From: an uncultured delta proteobacterium
GTDB taxonomy: Bacteria; Desulfobacterota; Syntrophia; Syntrophales; Smithellaceae
Length of the DNA stretch: 64,000 nt
Assembly: GCA_963753975.1 (NCBI GenBank)
Contig: CAVWEH010000002.1
Span: forward strand, 416,001 to 480,000
Direction of reading: 5' to 3'
Shown here: piece by piece, positions 4,293-26,741 of the stretch
How positions within the stretch are numbered: position 1 is the first letter of the stretch
How the letters are laid out: the number at the start of each line of letters is the position of its first letter
Position numbers and translations under genes: made by a program
Notes under the pieces: model-generated
What the model was told of the DNA's origin: nothing
The model's database searches: none
Seen by the model: only the letters and a program-made list of their open reading frames with translations

Positions 4293-6406
4293 TTATTTTT
4301 TCACCTTCAGCAGCCGGGCATTAATCGCGACGATAATCGTGCTCGCTGACATCAAGACCGCTCCCATGGCCGGACTTACGATAATCCCCGTGCTATAAAG
4401 AACCCCGGCCGCAAGCGGTATAGCCAGAGCATTGTAGCCCGTCGCCCAAGCCAGATTTTGCACTAATTTATTATAGGTGGCTTTGGACAGACCGATAATA
4501 CTGAGAATATCCTGCGGGTTGCTTTTCACCAGAATAATATCCGCCGTTTCCAGCGCCACATCCGTTCCCGCGCCGATAGCGATGCCGACATCCGCCTGAG
4601 CAAGAGCGGGAGCATCGTTAATTCCATCGCCTGTCATGGCGACAACAAATCCTTTGGATTGCACCTCTTTTACTTTTGCCGCCTTCTCACGGGGTAATAC
4701 TTCGGCAAAATATTCATCAAGACCAAGCTCGTCGGCCGACCCATCTGGCAACCAGGTGGTTGTCGCCGGTAAGCATCATACATTTTATACCTGCCGCCTG
4801 CAAACGTGCGACAGCGTTTTTCGCTTCCGGGCGGATCAAATCCGCCAGGGCAATCGCTCCGAGCAATTTGCCTTCCCTCAGAACAAAAATCACGGTTTTG
4901 CCCTGTTCATGAAAGCGGAGAATTCTGTTATCCTGAATATCCAAATTATTTTCTTTAATGTAGCGAGGGCTGACTACTTTTACGTCTTTTCCGTTCACCT
5001 TCCCTTCGGCGCCGCTGCCCGGAATGTTCTTGAAGCGCTCCGGGTGGACAATTATTTTTGCAGCCGCTACAATGCCTCTGGCAATGGGATGTTCCGAATA
5101 CGATTCGATGGACGCAGCATACATCAACAGGTCTTCCCTAGCTACTTCCCCGTCAAATATTACCACATCCGTCACACCGAACTTTCCTTCGGTCAGCGTC
5201 CCTGTTTTATCGAAAATAACCGCTTGGACGTTTCTTGCCTGTTCGAAAGCCGACTCTGTTGCGGATTAAAAGCCCGTTGACAGCCGCGATGGAAGTGGAA
5301 ACGGCAACAACCAGCGGCACCGCCAGACCCAGCGCGTGCGGACAACTGATCACCATTACCGTAACCGCCCTTTCCAGGGAAAAAGCAAAATCCTTATTCC
5401 CTATGAAAAACCAGATCAAGATTGTCAGAACGCTCACTGTTATCGCGATTACCGTAAGGAAAAACGCAAAACGGTTCGCCGTATCCTGTGTTTTCGATTT
5501 ACTTTCCTGCGCTTCTTTCACTAATCGAATAACCTGCGCTAAAAAAGAATCCTTGCCCAATTTTTTTATCAGCACAGTAAGAGAACTATCGCCGTTAACT
5601 GATCCGCCGATTACTTCCGAGCCTTTATTTTTCTTCACCGGGTTGGATTCTCCGGTCAGCATCGCTTCGTTGATATAAGTCTCGCCTTCCTCTATTTCCC
5701 CATCCGCCGGCACTTTCTCGCCCGGTTTAACAACGACTCTATCATTGAGATTCAATTCCTGCAGAGGAACATCTTTTATGCTTCCATCAGCCATTATCTT
5801 ATGGGCAGAGGCAGGCATAAGGTTTGCCAGTTTTGTGAGCGCTTTGGAGGCGCCCATTACCGAACGCATTTCTATCCAGTGCCCCAAGAGCATGATGTCA
5901 ATCAAAGTGGCGAGCTCCCAGAAAAATATCGAGCCCGGCAATCCAAAAACAACAACACTGCTGTATAAATAAGCCGTGGTGATGGCAACGGCAATAAGCG
6001 TCATCATTCCCGGCCGGGAATATTTGAATTCTTCGGCCATCCCTTTCAAGAAAGGCCAGCCGCCATAGAAGAAAATAAATGATGACAAAACAAAAAGAAT
6101 ATAAACGTCGCCCTTAAAGCGCAGAGCGTTTCCGATATCGAGCAGCATTTGAATCATGGGGGTAAGAATTAAAATGGGCCCAGTTACCGCGAGCGAAATC
6201 CAGAACCTCTTTTTAAAATCGCCGATCATATTCTCATGGCCTCCCTGATGGTCGTGATGATGATCTTGCGGAGGTTGATGGTTTGTTTGCTTATGCGGGA
6301 TTGCGGGATAAGCGCTGCCTGTATGCTGCCCGTGCATGTGCTCCTGGTGCTGGTGATTATCTTGCTTTGCTGGGAGGGGGTTTATACGTGTGATTAGATT
6401 TGTCAT
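4293..6406 (-). CDS. copB: Heavy-metal (copper, CopB/P1B-3 type) P-type ATPase, split by two frameshifts (ORFs 5207-6406, 4717-5175, 4293-4751)
   Basis: His-rich N-terminus, LTGES, CPH motif ([11 protein letters not shown]), FDKTGT near 5200-5215, [18 protein letters not shown] and MSAST. Confidence 0.88.
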
Positions 6407-8459: not shown

Positions 8460-8641
8460 AACGGCCTCCTTATTGGTTTTTGATCCCCACATTGACCATT
8501 TTGAATTACCCCGCAGCTCTTCACAAAAAGAGGCAGACGCATCGATTGTTTGCCAATACGAATGATTTGGGGAAGCTTCGTCTGGAATAGCAAAAGTCCC
8601 CGGCATTGTTTAATGCCCGATCTAAAAAGCAAGGGGTATAA

Positions 8642-10601: not shown

Positions 10602-10669
10602 ATGTAGTTGTCAATCAAAGTTGTGATTTCGACTTTATCTACTTCGTTTAGTTTTATTTTGTCCGGCAT
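10602..10669 (-). pseudogene. 5' stub of an MBL-fold hydrolase-like gene (copy 1)
   Basis: Reads MPDKIKLNEVDKVEITTLIDNYI, then Ser and stop; 63/68 nt identical to 11781-11848. Confidence 0.6.
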
Positions 10670-10778: not shown

Positions 10779-11609
10779 CTACTTTTTTAATTTATCCAAA
10801 CCAAATGTGTTGCTCATCATTTTATCCAGCATATTCACAGGCAGCTTCTTGAGAAACGGCAGACGCGTGGATTGCTTGCCGATGCGAATGATTTTGGGAA
10901 TCTTCGTCTGGAAAAGTTTGTCAATCAACACTTTGGAAAATTCTTCCACCGGCGTCGGATCTTTCTGTGAGGAGACTGCCCGCGCTTTGATGTAACCGGC
11001 CAGCGGCGCGTAAACAGAGTCTTCACATTGCCCGATATTTTTTGCGGCAGCATCCCCGAAACTGGATTTGATCGCGCCGGGTTGCACAGTGACAACGGAA
11101 ATACCAAAAGGCGCAAGCTCCACCCGCAGAGAATCCGAAAGCAACGATACCGCGGCTTTCGTCGCGCAGTAGGCTCCGGCAAAAGGTGTGGCGCAAATAC
11201 CCGACACGCTGCTGATATTGACGATAAGACCCGAGCGCTGCTTGATCATCTGCGGAGCAACAGCCTTGGTTAAAGCGGCAAGCCCGATGACATTGGTTTC
11301 AAACTGACGCCTCAAGTCTTCCATGGAAAGATCAATCACCGGCCCGATGAGTGCATAACCGGCATTGTTCACCAGCACATCAATTTTCCTGGCTTTGGCA
11401 ATCACCTCTTCCACGCAGGCATTAATGGATTTTTGATCGGTCACATCTAACGCCGCAATTTCCATCCTTTCTTTTTTCAGATGGCGGATCGTCTCCGGTT
11501 TTCGTGCGGTGGCAAATACCTTGCACCCGCGGGAAGCAAACTCTCTGGACAGAGCCAGCCCGATGCCCGATGAACAACCAGAAATTAATACAACTGAATT
11601 TTTATCCAT
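10779..11609 (-). CDS. Short-chain dehydrogenase/reductase (17-beta-HSD-like)
   Basis: ISGCSSGIG, LVNNAG, YCATK catalytic motif. Confidence 0.93.
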   Translation of the reverse strand: MDKNSVVLISGCSSGIGLALSREFASRGCKVFATARKPETIRHLKKERMEIAALDVTDQKSINACVEEVIAKARKIDVLVNNAGYALIGPVIDLSMEDLRRQFETNVIGLAALTKAVAPQMIKQRSGLIVNISSVSGICATPFAGAYCATKAAVSLLSDSLRVELAPFGISVVTVQPGAIKSSFGDAAAKNIGQCEDSVYAPLAGYIKARAVSSQKDPTPVEEFSKVLIDKLFQTKIPKIIRIGKQSTRLPFLKKLPVNMLDKMMSNTFGLDKLKK

Positions 11610-11780: not shown

Positions 11781-11848
11781 ATGTAGTTATCAATCAACGT
11801 TGTGATTTCGACTTTATCTACTTCGTTTAGTTTTATTTTGGTAGGCAT
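11781..11848 (-). pseudogene. 5' stub of an MBL-fold hydrolase-like gene (copy 2)
   Basis: Reads MPTKIKLNEVDKVEITTLIDNYI, then diverges from copy 1 at the same codon. Confidence 0.6.
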
Positions 11849-12078
11849 GAGGTCCCTAATATTTCTTAAAACTAAGTATCTTTCTTTTCTTCTGATATTT
11901 CTGCCACATTGGTTTGATGAAATCAAGTTCCCACTGGCCTAAAACTCGCAGTTGATTATCGGAAGTCATGGTCAAAGGGCAGTTTTTATTTCTTCCAAAG
12001 CGCATATTAAAAAATTTGACCTAACTTCTTTAAAAGAAGCAATTTTTTGAAACAGATATTTTGTTCGATGTGAATAAA

Positions 12079-12106
12079 TTGACATCAGTCGATATAGGGC
12101 TAAATT
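12079..12106 (+). promoter_or_regulatory. Possible upstream sigma70 promoter
   Basis: TTGACA (12079-12084), 16-bp spacer, TAAATT (12101-12106). Confidence 0.35.
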
Positions 12107-12158
12107 TATCTAATAAATACAATATATTGTGTCTGTACAACAAAATTAAAAAAATAGT

Positions 12159-12186
12159 TTGACAAATATTTAGAAATCTATATAAT
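12159..12186 (+). promoter_or_regulatory. Consensus sigma70 promoter of the retron locus
   Basis: TTGACA (12159-12164), 16-bp spacer, TATAAT (12181-12186). Confidence 0.75.
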
Positions 12187-12194
12187 AAAGTCAA

Positions 12195-12665
12195 TCAAGC
12201 CGACGATTCGTTGGTAGCTCTTTGAAAATGAAACGGAGATATTTATGTCCGAAATTTGGCATCTCCTCGATTCCAGGTCAAGTGAGACCTTCCCTGTTTT
12301 ATAGGGGATAACAGACTGAGAAATCAGTCACCACATGAAAATGTGGTTTTTTAAAAGGCCATGGTGATGCGAGGTCCGTTGCCTATGATTCTGTATAACG
12401 CAGTCTGAACTGCGCAGAAAAGCATAGACAGCAGTCAATAAAGATTATTTTCTTGACGCCCCGTACAACCTGTCGCCACCGGTGGTTCACCCATGGATAA
12501 AATTGCGACGATTGAACAGCCGGCGGCCATAGCATGGCCGCAACCCGTGCGGGCAAAGGAATCAAAGAGCGTTCTGATTGATTTTCTTTGAAGTGAGGCG
12601 ATGCCATTTTATCAGGTGATAAGATCATTGCCTCCCTAATGCAGGGTAATCTAGAGAAAGGAGGC
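12195..12665 (+). ncRNA. Putative retron msr-msd / structured leader RNA
   Basis: No plausible + strand ORF; dense hairpins including two GAAA tetraloops; closing pairing of 12217-12225 and 12271-12274 with 12558-12570; upstream of a retron RT operon. Confidence 0.7.
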
Positions 12666-12675
12666 CATAAACCAA

Positions 12676-12957
12676 ATGATAAAGAAGGACATAAAAACAA
12701 TTCGGGCAGATATGGAGATTGTCCGAGAGAGCCAGAATATTTTATTCCGGCTAAAATTTTCAATCGCCGTTTCTACAAGATCTAGTTTGAAAGAATATCT
12801 TCGAAAAGCTAAAAGACAGTTAGTTATTAGTTTCGTGATGTGTATTCTAAAGATGTCAGCAAATTCGATTGTAAATGCAACATCAACAGTGTTTTCCAAA
12901 GCCATTTCCGTCCTTCTAGAAATATGGCTTAGGATTAAACACGAACCGATCTTATAA
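12676..12957 (+). CDS. Small basic/hydrophobic protein (93 aa), putative retron effector
   Basis: AAAGGAGG SD at 12657-12664; lies between the structured RNA and the HTH gene; hydrophobic C-terminal half. Confidence 0.6.
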   Translation: MIKKDIKTIRADMEIVRESQNILFRLKFSIAVSTRSSLKEYLRKAKRQLVISFVMCILKMSANSIVNATSTVFSKAISVLLEIWLRIKHEPIL

Positions 12958-13002
12958 AAACCTGCACGGTTTTTTAAAACAATCCTCAATGAGGTGATAT
13001 TT

Positions 13003-13332
13003 ATGAAAGTAGGAGAGATAATTAAATTGATCAGGACCAAACGGGGGATATCCCAAAAGGAAATGGCAGACCAGTTTGGAATATCGCAAAATTACTTATC
13101 GCTTATAGAAACTCATAAAAAGAGACCAAGTATAGAAACAATCGACACTTTTGCAAAGAAATTTGGCATATCAAAAGAAGCCCTTTTGTTCGTTACGTCT
13201 GAAATACCTTCAGAGCTGGACGAAAATGCTAAACAGGATTTTAAAAAATTACAAGATAATATCCTTTATCTAATACTATTCGATGCCAACCGAGGTATTA
13301 ATTGTCTGCCGCGCGCCCAAAACGCCATCTAG
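13003..13332 (+). CDS. XRE-family helix-turn-helix protein
   Basis: IKLIRTKRGISQKEMADQFGISQNYLSLIETHKKRPS is a classic HTH_3 pattern; GAGGTG SD before ATG 13003. Confidence 0.92.
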   Translation: MKVGEIIKLIRTKRGISQKEMADQFGISQNYLSLIETHKKRPSIETIDTFAKKFGISKEALLFVTSEIPSELDENAKQDFKKLQDNILYLILFDANRGINCLPRAQNAI

Positions 13333-14180
13333 AGATTAGAAAACTCGATCATCTTTCTCTTCGTCTAGGTATTGCCCTGGACGAGCTCATCGCGGTAGCT
13401 AGTTCAATAAACCAATATTATATAGTTCGAAAGCTCCGGAAAAAAAACGGCGGCTTTAGGACAATAAGTGCGCCGCAGCCTCGTTTGAAAAGAATTCAAC
13501 TTAAAATACACAAGCTGCTAAAGGAGATTATTATAGACGATGCAGCTCACTGCGGAATTAAGGGTCGTTCAAACCTAAGTAATGCAAAGCAACACACTAA
13601 TAAACCAATGTTGCTGAACCTTGATTTAAGTAGTTTTTTCCCAAGTATTTCGCATCATCTAGTTTATAACATGTTTGTGCATTCCTTGAAATGCTCTCCA
13701 GCGGTATCTCGTATACTTACTCGTCTGTCTACTTACAATGGTGAAGTGCCTCAAGGTGGGCCAATGAGTACTGACATTGCAAATTTGATTTGCTGGAAAA
13801 TAGATAAGAGGTTATCAGGGCTGGCACGCAAGAACAATATCACATATACACGTTATTGTGACGACCTCTCTTTTTCAGGACAAACAATTTCTGAGCCATT
13901 TATTACCAAAGTGAAGGGAATAATTTCAGAAAGCGGTTTCAAATTGAACGCGGAAAAAGAATCTTTTCACAAAAGAACTAACTCCACAAGGATTGTTACG
14001 GGACTGTCTGTTAACGGCCCTCGTCCCAAAATTCCTAAATCAGCTTTAAAGAAACTACGCGCCGAAATACATATATTTGACAAATATGAATCTCATAGTT
14101 TAACAGAACAGTTATTGGAAAAAAGACAGAAGCAGATACGAGGAAAAATATCTTACAGAAATTATATAGAAAAGAATTGA
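13302..14180 (+). CDS. Retron-type reverse transcriptase (292 aa)
   Basis: KKNGGFRTISAP, region X NAKQH (NAxxH), LDLSSFFPSI, VPQGGPMS, YTRYCDDLSFS, region Y IVTGLSVN; TTG start with GAGGT SD. Confidence 0.93.
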   Translation: MSAARPKRHLEIRKLDHLSLRLGIALDELIAVASSINQYYIVRKLRKKNGGFRTISAPQPRLKRIQLKIHKLLKEIIIDDAAHCGIKGRSNLSNAKQHTNKPMLLNLDLSSFFPSISHHLVYNMFVHSLKCSPAVSRILTRLSTYNGEVPQGGPMSTDIANLICWKIDKRLSGLARKNNITYTRYCDDLSFSGQTISEPFITKVKGIISESGFKLNAEKESFHKRTNSTRIVTGLSVNGPRPKIPKSALKKLRAEIHIFDKYESHSLTEQLLEKRQKQIRGKISYRNYIEKN

Positions 14181-14431
14181 CGAATCTAATTCGGGGTATG
14201 CATCTATATTGCGTTTCCATCTTCATTCACTAAAAAGCGTTACAATATTAACTCAATCTTTTCATCTACTTATACTCGCAATTTTCTTTATTTCAATTCT
14301 TTTTTTGCACTAATAAATTACAAAGGTATTATCAATTCGTCCCAAATATCGCTTCTCTTTCCTTCTTGACCCTTCCAAAATCCTTTGCCAGCCTGCAAGG
14401 CAGGAACTAACAAAAAAAGGAGGAATTTTTT

Positions 14432-14563
14432 ATGAAGCTTAACCTCCGTACAACTTTCTTAGTTCTCACACCCATCACGTCAATACTTTCCGGTTGCAGT
14501 TACATCAAAATTATTATTAATAACGAAAGCAATCGAGCCGATTGCGCAATATACCAACCGTAG
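14432..14563 (+). CDS. Small putative lipoprotein or truncated lipoprotein gene (43 aa)
   Basis: AAGGAGG SD; MKLNLRTTFLVLTPITSILSGC lipobox; below the ORF-track size cut-off. Confidence 0.4.
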   Translation: MKLNLRTTFLVLTPITSILSGCSYIKIIINNESNRADCAIYQP

Positions 14564-14638
14564 AGAGCTTATAGAAAAACTTACGGAAGAAAACTGATTT
14601 CTAAACTCTTATAACCAATGATCCACAGGAGGTGTAGC

Positions 14639-18951: not shown

Positions 18952-19051
18952 TGAAAACCGTCAAGAGAATTCAAATAAATATAACTCTTTCAATCGTTAA
19001 TCTTCACTTTTTTGAGCCCGCAGATTCTATTGAGTAGTAGGTGAAAGCGAT

Positions 19052-19259
19052 AACCGAACAGTACTTGATTGGACAATATCTGCGAAATCAAATATAGATC
19101 ACCGGATGTGGACAAAAAGATTTTTTTGATCAACCCCCGGATTCACGACTTCGCGGCCTACGATTTCTGGCTGAAACCTCTGGGGCTTCTGTATTTGAGC
19201 GGTCTTTTGCGTCAAAACGGCCATCAGGTTCACTTTATCGATATAGATTGCCTTGACCC
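19052..19259 (+). pseudogene. Duplicated upstream region and 5' stub of the B12-binding radical SAM gene
   Basis: Close copy of 25329-25530 (INPRIHDFAAYDFWLKPLGLLYL), truncated after CLDP. Confidence 0.8.
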
Positions 19260-25113: not shown

Positions 25114-25384
25114 GTGCACGGTATCGCCGAACAATACAAAGAGATCATCGAGGAGCTGTATAAAAGCGGAGAGTAGCCCGTTCTTTAAATGATCCGTGAT
25201 ATAACAATCGGGGCTGTATGTTACTTCCTGAAATGTTGTTTTCTAATTTTACCTGCCATAAAGCATTTCAAACGTAAATCATTGAAATATTTATTCACTA
25301 TACCTGTTTCTTTGTCGGTGAAATCAACAACCGAACAGTACTTGATTGGACAATATCTGCAAAATCGAATATAGATCACTGGAT

Positions 25385-26741
25385 ATGGGCAAAAAGATTC
25401 TTCTCATCAACCCCTGGATTCACGACTTCGCGGCCTATGATTTCTGGCTGAAACCTCTGGGGCTTCTATATTTAGGCGGCCTTTTGCGTCAAAACGGCCA
25501 CCAGGTTCATTTTATCGACTGCCTCGACCCTTACCACCCGGCGATGCTGGCGAGAGGCCTCAAACAACCGCAGCGTCATCTCTACGGCCGGGGCAAATTC
25601 TTCCGACAGGTTATTCCCAAACCCGCGAGCTTAAAAATGATTCCGAAAAATTATTGCCGTTATGGAATTCTGCCGGAAATTTTTCGCGAGGAGCTAAGAA
25701 GCCGTCAAAATATGGACATCGTTTTAATCACTTCGATGATGACATACTGGTATCCCGGAGTTTTTGAGGCAATTAAAATAATCAAAGAAGCATTGCCTTC
25801 CGTTCCCATTGTGCTGGGCGGTAAGTACGCAACCTTGTGCCCGGAACACGCCGCAAAATATTCCGGTGCTGATTTTGTGATTTCCGGCGCGGGAGAAGAA
25901 CCAAATTCTTGCAATTGCTGCAAGGATTTATTTGACGAAGAACCATCTTTTATACCCGATGAGTGAAAACCTTGATTCTCTTCCCTACCCCGCTTTCGAC
26001 TTAATCCGCAAAATCGACCAACTACCCATTACCACATCGCGCGGCTGTCCGTATCGCTGCAGTTACTGCTCCTCGCCTATACTCAACAAAAAATTTATTC
26101 GGCGCGATCCGATTAAAGTCGCCGATGAAATCGAACACTGGCAGAAAAAATCCGGCGTGAAGAATTTCAGTTTTTACGATGACGCTCTCCTCGTTGAACC
26201 GGATAAAATGATTATCCCGCTGTTAAATGAACTCCATAAACGAAATTTGTCCTGCCAGTTCCATTGCCCGAACGGATTACATCTGAGGGAAATCAATCCG
26301 GAGTTAAGCGAATTACTTTTTCAGTCCGGTTTTGAGACAATTCGCTTCGGTTTTGAAACAGCCGATTTCCGGAGACAAAAGCAAACAGGCGGCAAAGTCA
26401 AAAATGAAGAATTAGTAAATGGCGTGCGCTTCTTAAAAAAAGCAGGCTATAAAACCGATGATATAGGAATTTATCTTCTCTGTGGCCTGCCGAATCAGAG
26501 CGCGGCAGAAGTAAGGGAAAGCATCGATTTTGTTCAAAAATGCGGCGCCAAGCCGCTTCTTGCCGAATATTCCCCCATTCCCGGCACAAAGATATGGGCA
26601 GAAGCTGTAACCGCTTCCCCCTTTGACATTCAGAACGAACCGCTATATCATAACAATTCAATGCTTGTCTGCCGGAGCGATGATTTTAGCTTTGCCGCAT
26701 ATACGGAGCTTAAAGCGGCGCTAAGAAAGAAGAGTAATTAA
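25385..26741 (+). CDS. B12-binding radical SAM protein, split by one frameshift near 25910-25960
   Basis: Cobalamin-binding-like N-terminus; TSRGCPYRCSYC CxxxCxxC motif in the second ORF. Confidence 0.88.

Follow-up and report, generated by a model that had tools for sequence, protein, structure and literature searches.

A type VI retron of a separate lineage in an uncultured Smithellaceae bacterium, with its small-protein gene embedded in a predicted long structured RNA and a possible translational switch

The DNA stretch analyzed here (hereafter the window) comprises 64,000 nucleotides from an uncultured delta proteobacterium of the Smithellaceae (assembly GCA_963753975.1, contig CAVWEH010000002.1, positions 416,001 to 480,000), and contains, over positions 11800-14600, an AT-rich island (G+C 0.29-0.47 against ~0.5-0.6 in the flanking genes) located between an SDR oxidoreductase gene and an amidase gene. 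On its + strand, the island carries in this order a promoter, a structured leader of 483 nt, an open reading frame (ORF) of 93 aa, a gene for a helix-turn-helix (HTH) protein and a gene for a reverse transcriptase (RT) of 292 aa. A first, sequence-only reading had taken this arrangement for an intact type VI-like retron, i.e., an anti-phage defense system, and the AT-rich island, the consensus promoter, the long structured RNA, the 93-aa ORF with its AGGAGG, the HTH gene and the RT gene were all found again in the present analysis. That the locus is by its anatomy a type VI retron is hardly in doubt. Judged by its sequence, with all three frames open, an intact retron is supported, which is very probably functional; the earlier claim of an intact defense system holds to the extent that open frames and intact motifs can speak for it. 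The sigma-70-type promoter (TTGACA-16-TATAAT, 12159-12186, + strand) matches the consensus at 12 of 12 positions, and a second, weaker site (10/12 matches) is found at 12079, where the region first described begins. A TTGAC..TA...T element occupies the same position in 15/15 complete homologous loci.

The RT gene (13302-14180, + strand) starts with a TTG codon that overlaps the end of the HTH gene. The retron motifs listed in the sequence-only reading were located at aa 94-98 (NAKQH), 185-188 (YCDD) and 232-234 (VTG), and the DD of YCDD and the TG of VTG are invariant across 29 aligned RTs. The NAxxH and VTG motifs are presumably those named region X and region Y of retron RTs. The best NCBIfam and PDB matches of the protein are retron RTs, and an RT of the DRT, Abi or group II intron kind was rejected, these models scoring 47-51 bits against 190 bits for a retron model. 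The top PADLOC model was RT_VI with 264.7 bits, only 15 bits ahead of RT_III-A (249.2 bits), a lead that tells against the type assignment. Near-full-length relatives number 28, at 46-72% identity, below which identity falls directly to ~36%; of the 23 among them that were scanned, 22 likewise had RT_VI as their best model.

Trees of 48 and 40 rows were built with reference loci from named plasmids and phages, typed by their neighbors and by PADLOC as type V (Se72 effector), type IV (2TM_IV) or type VI (SP_VI matches or small proteins of 48-54 aa); the two studied type VI retrons, Vpa2 and Sen3, were themselves outside the trees, and types IV and V together contributed only three rows. The RT was placed in retron clade 3 with types IV, V and VI, apart from types III-A/XIII/XI (support 97/98 in the 48-row tree and 100/99 in the 40-row tree), in a well-supported lineage (99/97 and 100/96) nested within no reference group, the base of clade 3 being unresolved. 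It lies outside the group of phage-borne loci with small proteins of 48-54 aa, which, Vpa2 being absent from the tree, are only presumed to be Vpa2-like. A single clade of the 29 type VI-like rows was rejected (p-AU 0.0005, with distant outgroups and only three IV/V rows), and type VI is not monophyletic in the 40-row tree because three SP_VI-bearing control rows, with cl2075/cl3272-like small proteins, group with types IV and V at 100/100. From these sequences, type VI as a whole may be paraphyletic; monophyly was reported in the accessible part of the Sen3 preprint, from a tree rooted on types IV and V (bioRxiv 10.64898/2026.04.27.721009). No member of cl3897, another lineage of that preprint, was identified. 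Within the lineage of the window RT, P0029 is a natural HTH-RT fusion of 414 aa that could be a sequencing or gene-calling artefact. In L005 (1378-2563, minus strand), which falls in the sister group of the lineage in the 40-row tree, and in L071 (1261-2358), a small ORF immediately precedes an RT_VI-like RT, and no HTH gene separates the two.

The HTH gene (13003-13332, + strand) encodes a Cro/C1 (XRE) protein of 109 aa from its ATG, 46-53% identical to 15 homologs and matching HTH_VI with 80 bits (next model 36 bits). It stands directly upstream of the RT gene and overlaps it, as in type VI, and the gene of a small helical protein separates it from the RNA, as type VI requires. With RT_VI and HTH_VI as best PADLOC matches and the RT in clade 3, the type VI label given earlier was borne out. 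Scans with an RT alignment recovered 22 loci at 43-56% RT identity (5/5 genome, 17/32 metagenome and 0/8 viral loci), whereas a first genome scan with the single RT as query had confirmed 0 of 75 candidates. The whole array of promoter, RNA, small ORF, HTH and RT is kept in 15/22 loci, as expected if homologous RTs retain the upstream RNA; of the remaining seven, one is cut by a contig end inside the RNA, one (L032) lacks the 5' part of the RNA and five end too soon. Their titled hosts are Desulfobacterota metagenome-assembled genomes and one Patescibacteria metagenome-assembled genome. In L032 (491-1190), the three genes remain and most of the RNA is replaced by unrelated DNA; if the small protein is toxic, it should there be silenced or restrained by the HTH protein. 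The island DNA was not found in the 30 related genomes searched, and flanking DNA was matched in 13 of those, while the RT was found at E ≤ 1e-30 in 8/400 other genomes of the phylum, only one of them close (48%). Because the island is missing where flanks are matched and the RT is rare in the phylum, the retron seems to have entered a variable region recently by horizontal transfer.

The small protein (SP; 12676-12957, + strand) has 93 aa, is basic and all-helical, and is preceded by the ribosome site AGGAGG at 12659-12664, 11 nt before its ATG. Its homologs measure 77-95 aa and are 27-34% identical to the window copy; pN/pS was 0.14-0.44 in 8/8 close pairs from three lineages, and purifying selection shows SP to be a true gene. 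All 16 members carry a charge of +4 to +11 and are moderately hydrophobic (best 19-residue mean 0.75-1.68), and the predicted fold consists of two long helices (pLDDT 70, pTM 0.33), with no structure match in the PDB and, for the two members searched, no usable match in the ESM Atlas. An SP profile found 43 representatives among 1.84 billion proteins, and the family in 2/401 genomes of the phylum, both times beside an RT. The SP sequence alone as query recovered only itself among two candidates, so that the family surfaced only through neighboring RT loci. None of the 16 members matched a PADLOC SP_VI model at E ≤ 1, whereas the control SPs of L086, L087 and L074 (E ≤ 1e-30) and of L084 (4e-4) did; none of the 40 members scanned matched Pfam, and comparison of the SP profile with 11 other type VI SPs gave no convincing homology (best 6.4 bits). 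By these searches, SP appears to belong to no named PADLOC SP_VI or Pfam family. The sequence-only reading's unrecognized effector is therefore upheld at family level; it is nothing out of the ordinary for type VI, in which, according to the Sen3 preprint (bioRxiv 10.64898/2026.04.27.721009), the SP toxins are as a rule small helical proteins of mutually unrelated families. By analogy to Vpa2 and Sen3, SP would be the toxic effector.

The leader (12193-12675, 483 nt) is strongly structured: the segment 12193-12680 folds at -162.2 kcal/mol (z = -6.35), a stability reached by none of 100 shuffles. Rfam returned no family match for the RNA (one chance match, E 4.4). The RNA, first described as ~470 nt of non-coding hairpins, does not stop ahead of the small ORF: it extends past the SP start, pairing with codons of the ORF and with sequence beyond the SP stop. 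From folds and covariation, the predicted product is a hybrid RNA of ~780 nt (12193-12975, + strand) made of the leader, the SP coding region, an inverted repeat (IR2) and a U-tract, its ends being placed by analogy to Vpa2 and Sen3. All its elements lie on the + strand. A conserved 5' stem-loop (12199-12215; four consensus pairs, none broken in 13 rows and two with two-sided change) is followed by GCTCTTTGA (12217-12225), invariant in 15/15 rows and complementary to a loop motif at 12562-12570, with which a pseudoknot is predicted. Leader arm P0a (12230-12240) would pair with SP codons at 12763-12773 (pair probability 0.98), and arm P0b (12242-12250) with 12687-12695 (0.96), covering the AUG in several homologs. 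Strand X (12257-12269), defined by folds and cognate pairing as the 5' arm of a helix P1, precedes four hairpins, H1-H4 (12275-12347), conserved in folds and alignment and candidates for an RT-binding msr, and a variable region of 196 nt (12349-12544), candidate msd template, in which a long stem-loop and a small hairpin next to IR1 are laid out as in Vpa2-like loci. IR1 (12545-12553) pairs across the SP gene with IR2 (12961-12969, followed by the U-tract to 12975) in a predicted priming duplex. A hairpin with an AGAGC loop separates IR1 from strand Y (12595-12606), the 3' arm of P1, and another hairpin separates Y from strand Z (12626-12636). Strand Z is an anti-Shine-Dalgarno (anti-SD) sequence, predicted from folds and cognate pairing to pair either with the Shine-Dalgarno sequence (SD; strand W, 12659-12665) or with Y, which would then act as an anti-anti-SD. 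A last small hairpin lies over the HTH ribosome site (12984-12994; by eye in 14/15 rows, absent in L019). The order of these elements, from the 5' stem-loop to SP, IR2, the U/A tract and the HTH-site hairpin, is fixed in the 15 aligned rows.

The pairings were evaluated by comparing cognate with swapped arms, using one sequence from each of nine lineages. Cognate arms were favored for IR1/IR2 (-14.1 vs -6.5 kcal/mol), P0a (-17.7 vs -10.7), P0b (-15.5 vs -8.4) and P1 (-20.5 vs -14.1), each with p ≤ 3e-5, and for anti-SD/SD (-11.2 vs -9.1, p 0.002), these p-values being overstated since the helix windows were placed by eye with the alignment in view, related sequences are not independent and pseudoknots are left out of the folding. 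For IR1, the cognate partner was the best in 7/9 lineages; the windows of L028 and L030, anchored on a wrong AGAGC, scored low and were kept in the means. This covariation suggests that the coding region of SP lies embedded in the RNA, with an inverted repeat after the SP stop. Both the IR1/IR2 duplex and the pair of 5' motif and loop would be pseudoknots, as each crosses other helices. The motif/loop pair showed no covariation inside the lineage (p 0.36), its motif being invariant, and one compensatory change in the distant L004. When RNA models were run on 38 sources, the 5' model matched only lineage members and L004 (E 1e-6), a locus with 33% RT identity and a different SP of 56 aa that keeps the same elements; the 3' model matched lineage members, with weak matches at E ≥ 0.05. 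In other type VI loci (L072, L073, L086, L087 and L075), a 5' motif upstream of SP with a possible partner near IR1 was seen by eye, as GAGAG/CTCTC in the Vpa2-like group and GTTCTTT in others, L087 giving a weak model match (E 0.77); these sequences hint at a type-wide pseudoknot. As for length, the leader has 387-422 nt in 14 homologs and the whole RNA 649-730 nt, against ~778 nt here, the excess residing in the variable stretch (97-151 nt in the 14 homologs). The earlier claim of a much longer RNA holds against Vpa2 (~470 nt for the complete RNA) and Sen3 (up to ~280 nt from the SP start), although the 150-250 nt then used was not the appropriate comparison, and a leader of ~460 nt also occurs in L003, another type VI-like locus.

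Then, the folding of the region around the SP start was considered. In the consensus fold with X omitted, Y pairs with Z. On the alignment, 82.5% of the cells of this Y:Z helix are paired and 6/9 pairs show two-sided change; its score of 0.423 compares with at most 0.219 when the strands are slid, and was reached by 0/500 shuffles. The helix reaches past the stretch of Z that suffices to mask the SD, swapped arms pair less well than cognate ones across the nine lineages (p 5e-4), and in L004 a 13-bp Y:Z helix can be read by eye. For the window RNA, truncated at SP codon 45, the cost of opening the SP start is 11.6 kcal/mol; it falls to 4.1-4.4 kcal/mol without the 5' leader and comes to 8.2 kcal/mol when Y is removed too. 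The SP start is predicted to be less accessible in the full RNA than without the leader in 8/9 lineages and than with a shuffled leader in 7/9, and removal of Y raises the cost again in 9/9 lineages.

Two preprints, accessible in part, describe type VI retrons with which these features can be compared. Vpa2 (bioRxiv 10.1101/2025.10.22.683967) shares the order RNA-SP-HTH-RT, a hybrid RNA enclosing the SP gene, a ribosome site and start held in stems, and a repeat after the SP stop that pairs back to the template arm. It differs in its shorter hybrid RNA (~470 vs ~780 nt), in its unrelated SP of 55 aa (vs 93 aa here), and in a 7-nt direct repeat present in its template loop and riboregulator loop, of which no counterpart is shared in the lineage; here, instead, the leader is predicted to pair into SP codons and the X-Y-Z-W strands could form a relay. 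By eye, L072, L073, L076 and L077 do show such a direct repeat, of 5-7 nt. Sen3 (cl2075; bioRxiv 10.64898/2026.04.27.721009), as far as the accessible text describes it, shares the 5' stem-loop, essential in Sen3, an IR1-IR2 pairing across the SP gene, a variable internal stem-loop, an SP coding region under RNA constraint, a helical SP of similar size and a predicted SP-HTH contact. Its leader is shorter (~280 vs 483 nt), the SP_VI models that recognize control SPs find no match in the window SP, the RT is far from those control loci in the trees, and no RecC was found in the host. The parts consulted of Mestre et al. 2020 (PMC7736814) describe type VI with a clade 3 RT, a Cro/C1 HTH of 91-110 aa and a small helical accessory protein, as here, although the present SP lies outside their modelled clusters and exceeds their 75-79 aa. 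Hence, what is new is a separate lineage with an unmodelled SP family and a longer RNA, the type VI kind itself being already characterized through Vpa2 and Sen3; what remains of the proposed new subtype is a new variant or lineage within a known kind. No paper on the lineage was found in the literature, although the supplementary member lists of both preprints and of Mestre 2020 may include members, and 'Desulfobacter' is not mentioned in the accessible portion of the SPIRE survey (PMC13712802).

On balance, we favor, by a little over even chances, a horizontally acquired type VI retron that acts by abortive infection and keeps its toxin under translational control. Vpa2 and Sen3 serve as models for the transcript ends, the priming site, the template, the toxicity of SP, the role of the HTH protein and a function in defense. 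One promoter would yield the ~780-nt hybrid RNA, bearing msr-like hairpins, the variable template and the SP message, with transcription continuing into HTH and RT. In the resting state, the RNA would be shut, the leader lying on the SP start region through P0a and P0b, X holding Y in P1 and Z covering the SD, while the HTH protein bound to the RT-RNA complex would restrain the system. Past the SP stop, IR2 would pair with IR1, so that copying by the RT would cover the segment immediately upstream of IR1 and yield at most ~195 nt of DNA. Upon phage infection, reverse transcription or DNA build-up would open the leader, Y would capture Z, and the ribosome site thus freed would allow SP synthesis and arrest of the cell. 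As leader-opening agent, the DNA product of the RT is the best candidate, because RT activity is required for defense in both studied systems, according to the available parts of their preprints (bioRxiv 10.1101/2025.10.22.683967; 10.64898/2026.04.27.721009). Several observations weigh against this scheme, besides the overstated p-values: the cognate Y:Z partner was the best in only 2/9 lineages, L022 and L028 did not exceed the shuffled-leader control, and the lineage of L014/L016/L017, without a good P1 (-5.3), folds X directly onto the SD. Moreover, no repeat of at least 7 nt, as in Vpa2, is common to the 15 RNAs, which makes the link from DNA to switch a guess, and Sen3, in the accessible text, combines a similar RNA scaffold with a constitutive SP (bioRxiv 10.64898/2026.04.27.721009), so that RNA structure alone does not prove translational control.

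This leads to the best-surviving alternative, a retron of the Sen3 kind in which SP is constitutive and neutralized by direct HTH binding, the RNA folds serve priming and scaffolding, the DNA is made constitutively and SP is released post-translationally when a host recombination nuclease is inhibited. We regard it as unlikely, though worth keeping in mind. The 5' stem-loop and IR1-IR2 are features of Sen3, as far as it is described, and SP, with 77-95 aa and long helices in the family, is nearer to the 79-aa SP of Sen3 than to the 55-aa SP of Vpa2. For a complex of SP with HTH, prediction gave a score of 0.47, the best of three controls reaching 0.00, with runs agreeing in at least 90% of contacts and partner pLDDT of at least 74; in the benchmark of this score, 116/157 solved and 2/215 mismatched pairs reached the mark, with 18/157 and both mismatches at ≤ 0.60, and the prediction lends weak support to a direct contact. 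Conversely, the SP start lies under several helices that covary, and is freed when an alternative one forms. In addition, RecC was not found in the genome, which is 95% complete, and one PD-(D/E)XK gene adjoins a helicase-like ORF, a pair that we take to be AddAB-like; since no RecC was found, a trigger by RecBCD surveillance cannot apply as such. The two control layers are compatible and not exclusive, and translational control is, by a modest preference, the main one.

A bolder version of the favored reading, which we consider doubtful, makes the locus the sixth lineage of type VI, a deep one, with a toxin family of its own and a third logic of control. Here, the X-Y-Z-W relay, as a distinct mechanism itself a tentative hypothesis, would switch from X:Y plus Z:SD to Y:Z plus free SD, tripped by the DNA product of the RT opening the leader, and two pseudoknots would dock both RNA ends at the priming site and hold the relay. 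If true, reverse transcription would mechanically unlock the toxin message without the repeat of Vpa2. In addition, a U-tract immediately behind IR2, where no G is conserved, would let the RNA prime from its own 3' end.

The structured RNA adjoins the RT and offers more than one candidate for the priming helix. Under canonical priming, P1 (X:Y) would be the a1/a2 repeat, a G after X would prime and the RT would start just upstream of Y, giving a DNA with complements of the AGAGC loop and IR1 that could displace the 5' motif and IR2 in trans. P1 indeed covaries and encloses the hairpins and the variable region as a1/a2 does, and an invariant G lies near the base of H1; however, no unpaired G is conserved after X, and this account appears improbable. 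Copying from upstream of IR1 is suggested instead because, in Vpa2-like loci, the repeat-bearing small hairpin directly precedes IR1, which fits IR1/IR2 priming given the DNA map in the accessible part of the Vpa2 preprint. Finally, a real array whose window copy has decayed or fallen silent is very improbable: the HTH-RT start offset is 299 nt against 304 nt in most homologs, which makes the HTH tail longer and different, the RT begins with residues unlike those of the closest relatives, gene fragments occur in the region and the homolog L032 lost its RNA, but three open frames, intact catalytic motifs, a perfect promoter and every helix are kept, and HTH tails overlap the RT in L015 and L029 too.

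Other repeats were observed around the retron. On the minus strand, the opening ~22 codons of one gene occur twice, at 11781-11848 and 10602-10669, with 93% identity between the copies. Genomes of the same genus carry this gene in longer or complete form (L065, 318 aa; L064, 114 aa), and by its start it presumably encodes a metallo-beta-lactamase fold; the fragment recurs in clusters in relatives, which suggests a repeated insertion site. An AT-rich repeat of ~40 bp at 14271-14311 has five further matches in its own genome and many in relatives, and on the minus strand looks by eye like a -35/-10 promoter facing the RT 3' end, where the promoter scan gave plus-strand sites only. An integron-cassette origin of these flanking repeats was dropped, since one is the start of a gene in duplicate and the other resembles a promoter, and by eye they are not attC-like. 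Elsewhere, the 3' part of the SDR gene is copied at 81% identity 2.3 kb away (8519-8590 vs 10845-10916), a gene start of 205 nt is duplicated at 90% (19037-19241 vs 25314-25518), each copy following a large histidine-kinase-like gene, and a heavy-metal ATPase-like ORF of only 399 aa (5207-6406) is followed by a 152-aa ORF (4717-5175), possibly as one frameshifted gene.

The two studied type VI retrons differ in how reverse transcription activates the toxin, and neither defines the RNA switch or the priming site. The present lineage adds a family of predicted small toxins from anaerobic environmental bacteria that SP profiles had missed, and provides predictions at the base-pair level, backed by covariation, for IR1/IR2, P0a, P0b and the X-Y-Z-W strands, which lend themselves to compensatory mutants. 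Should the relay not hold, the locus would be one more type VI retron; if it does, it would be a natural translation switch gated by cDNA.

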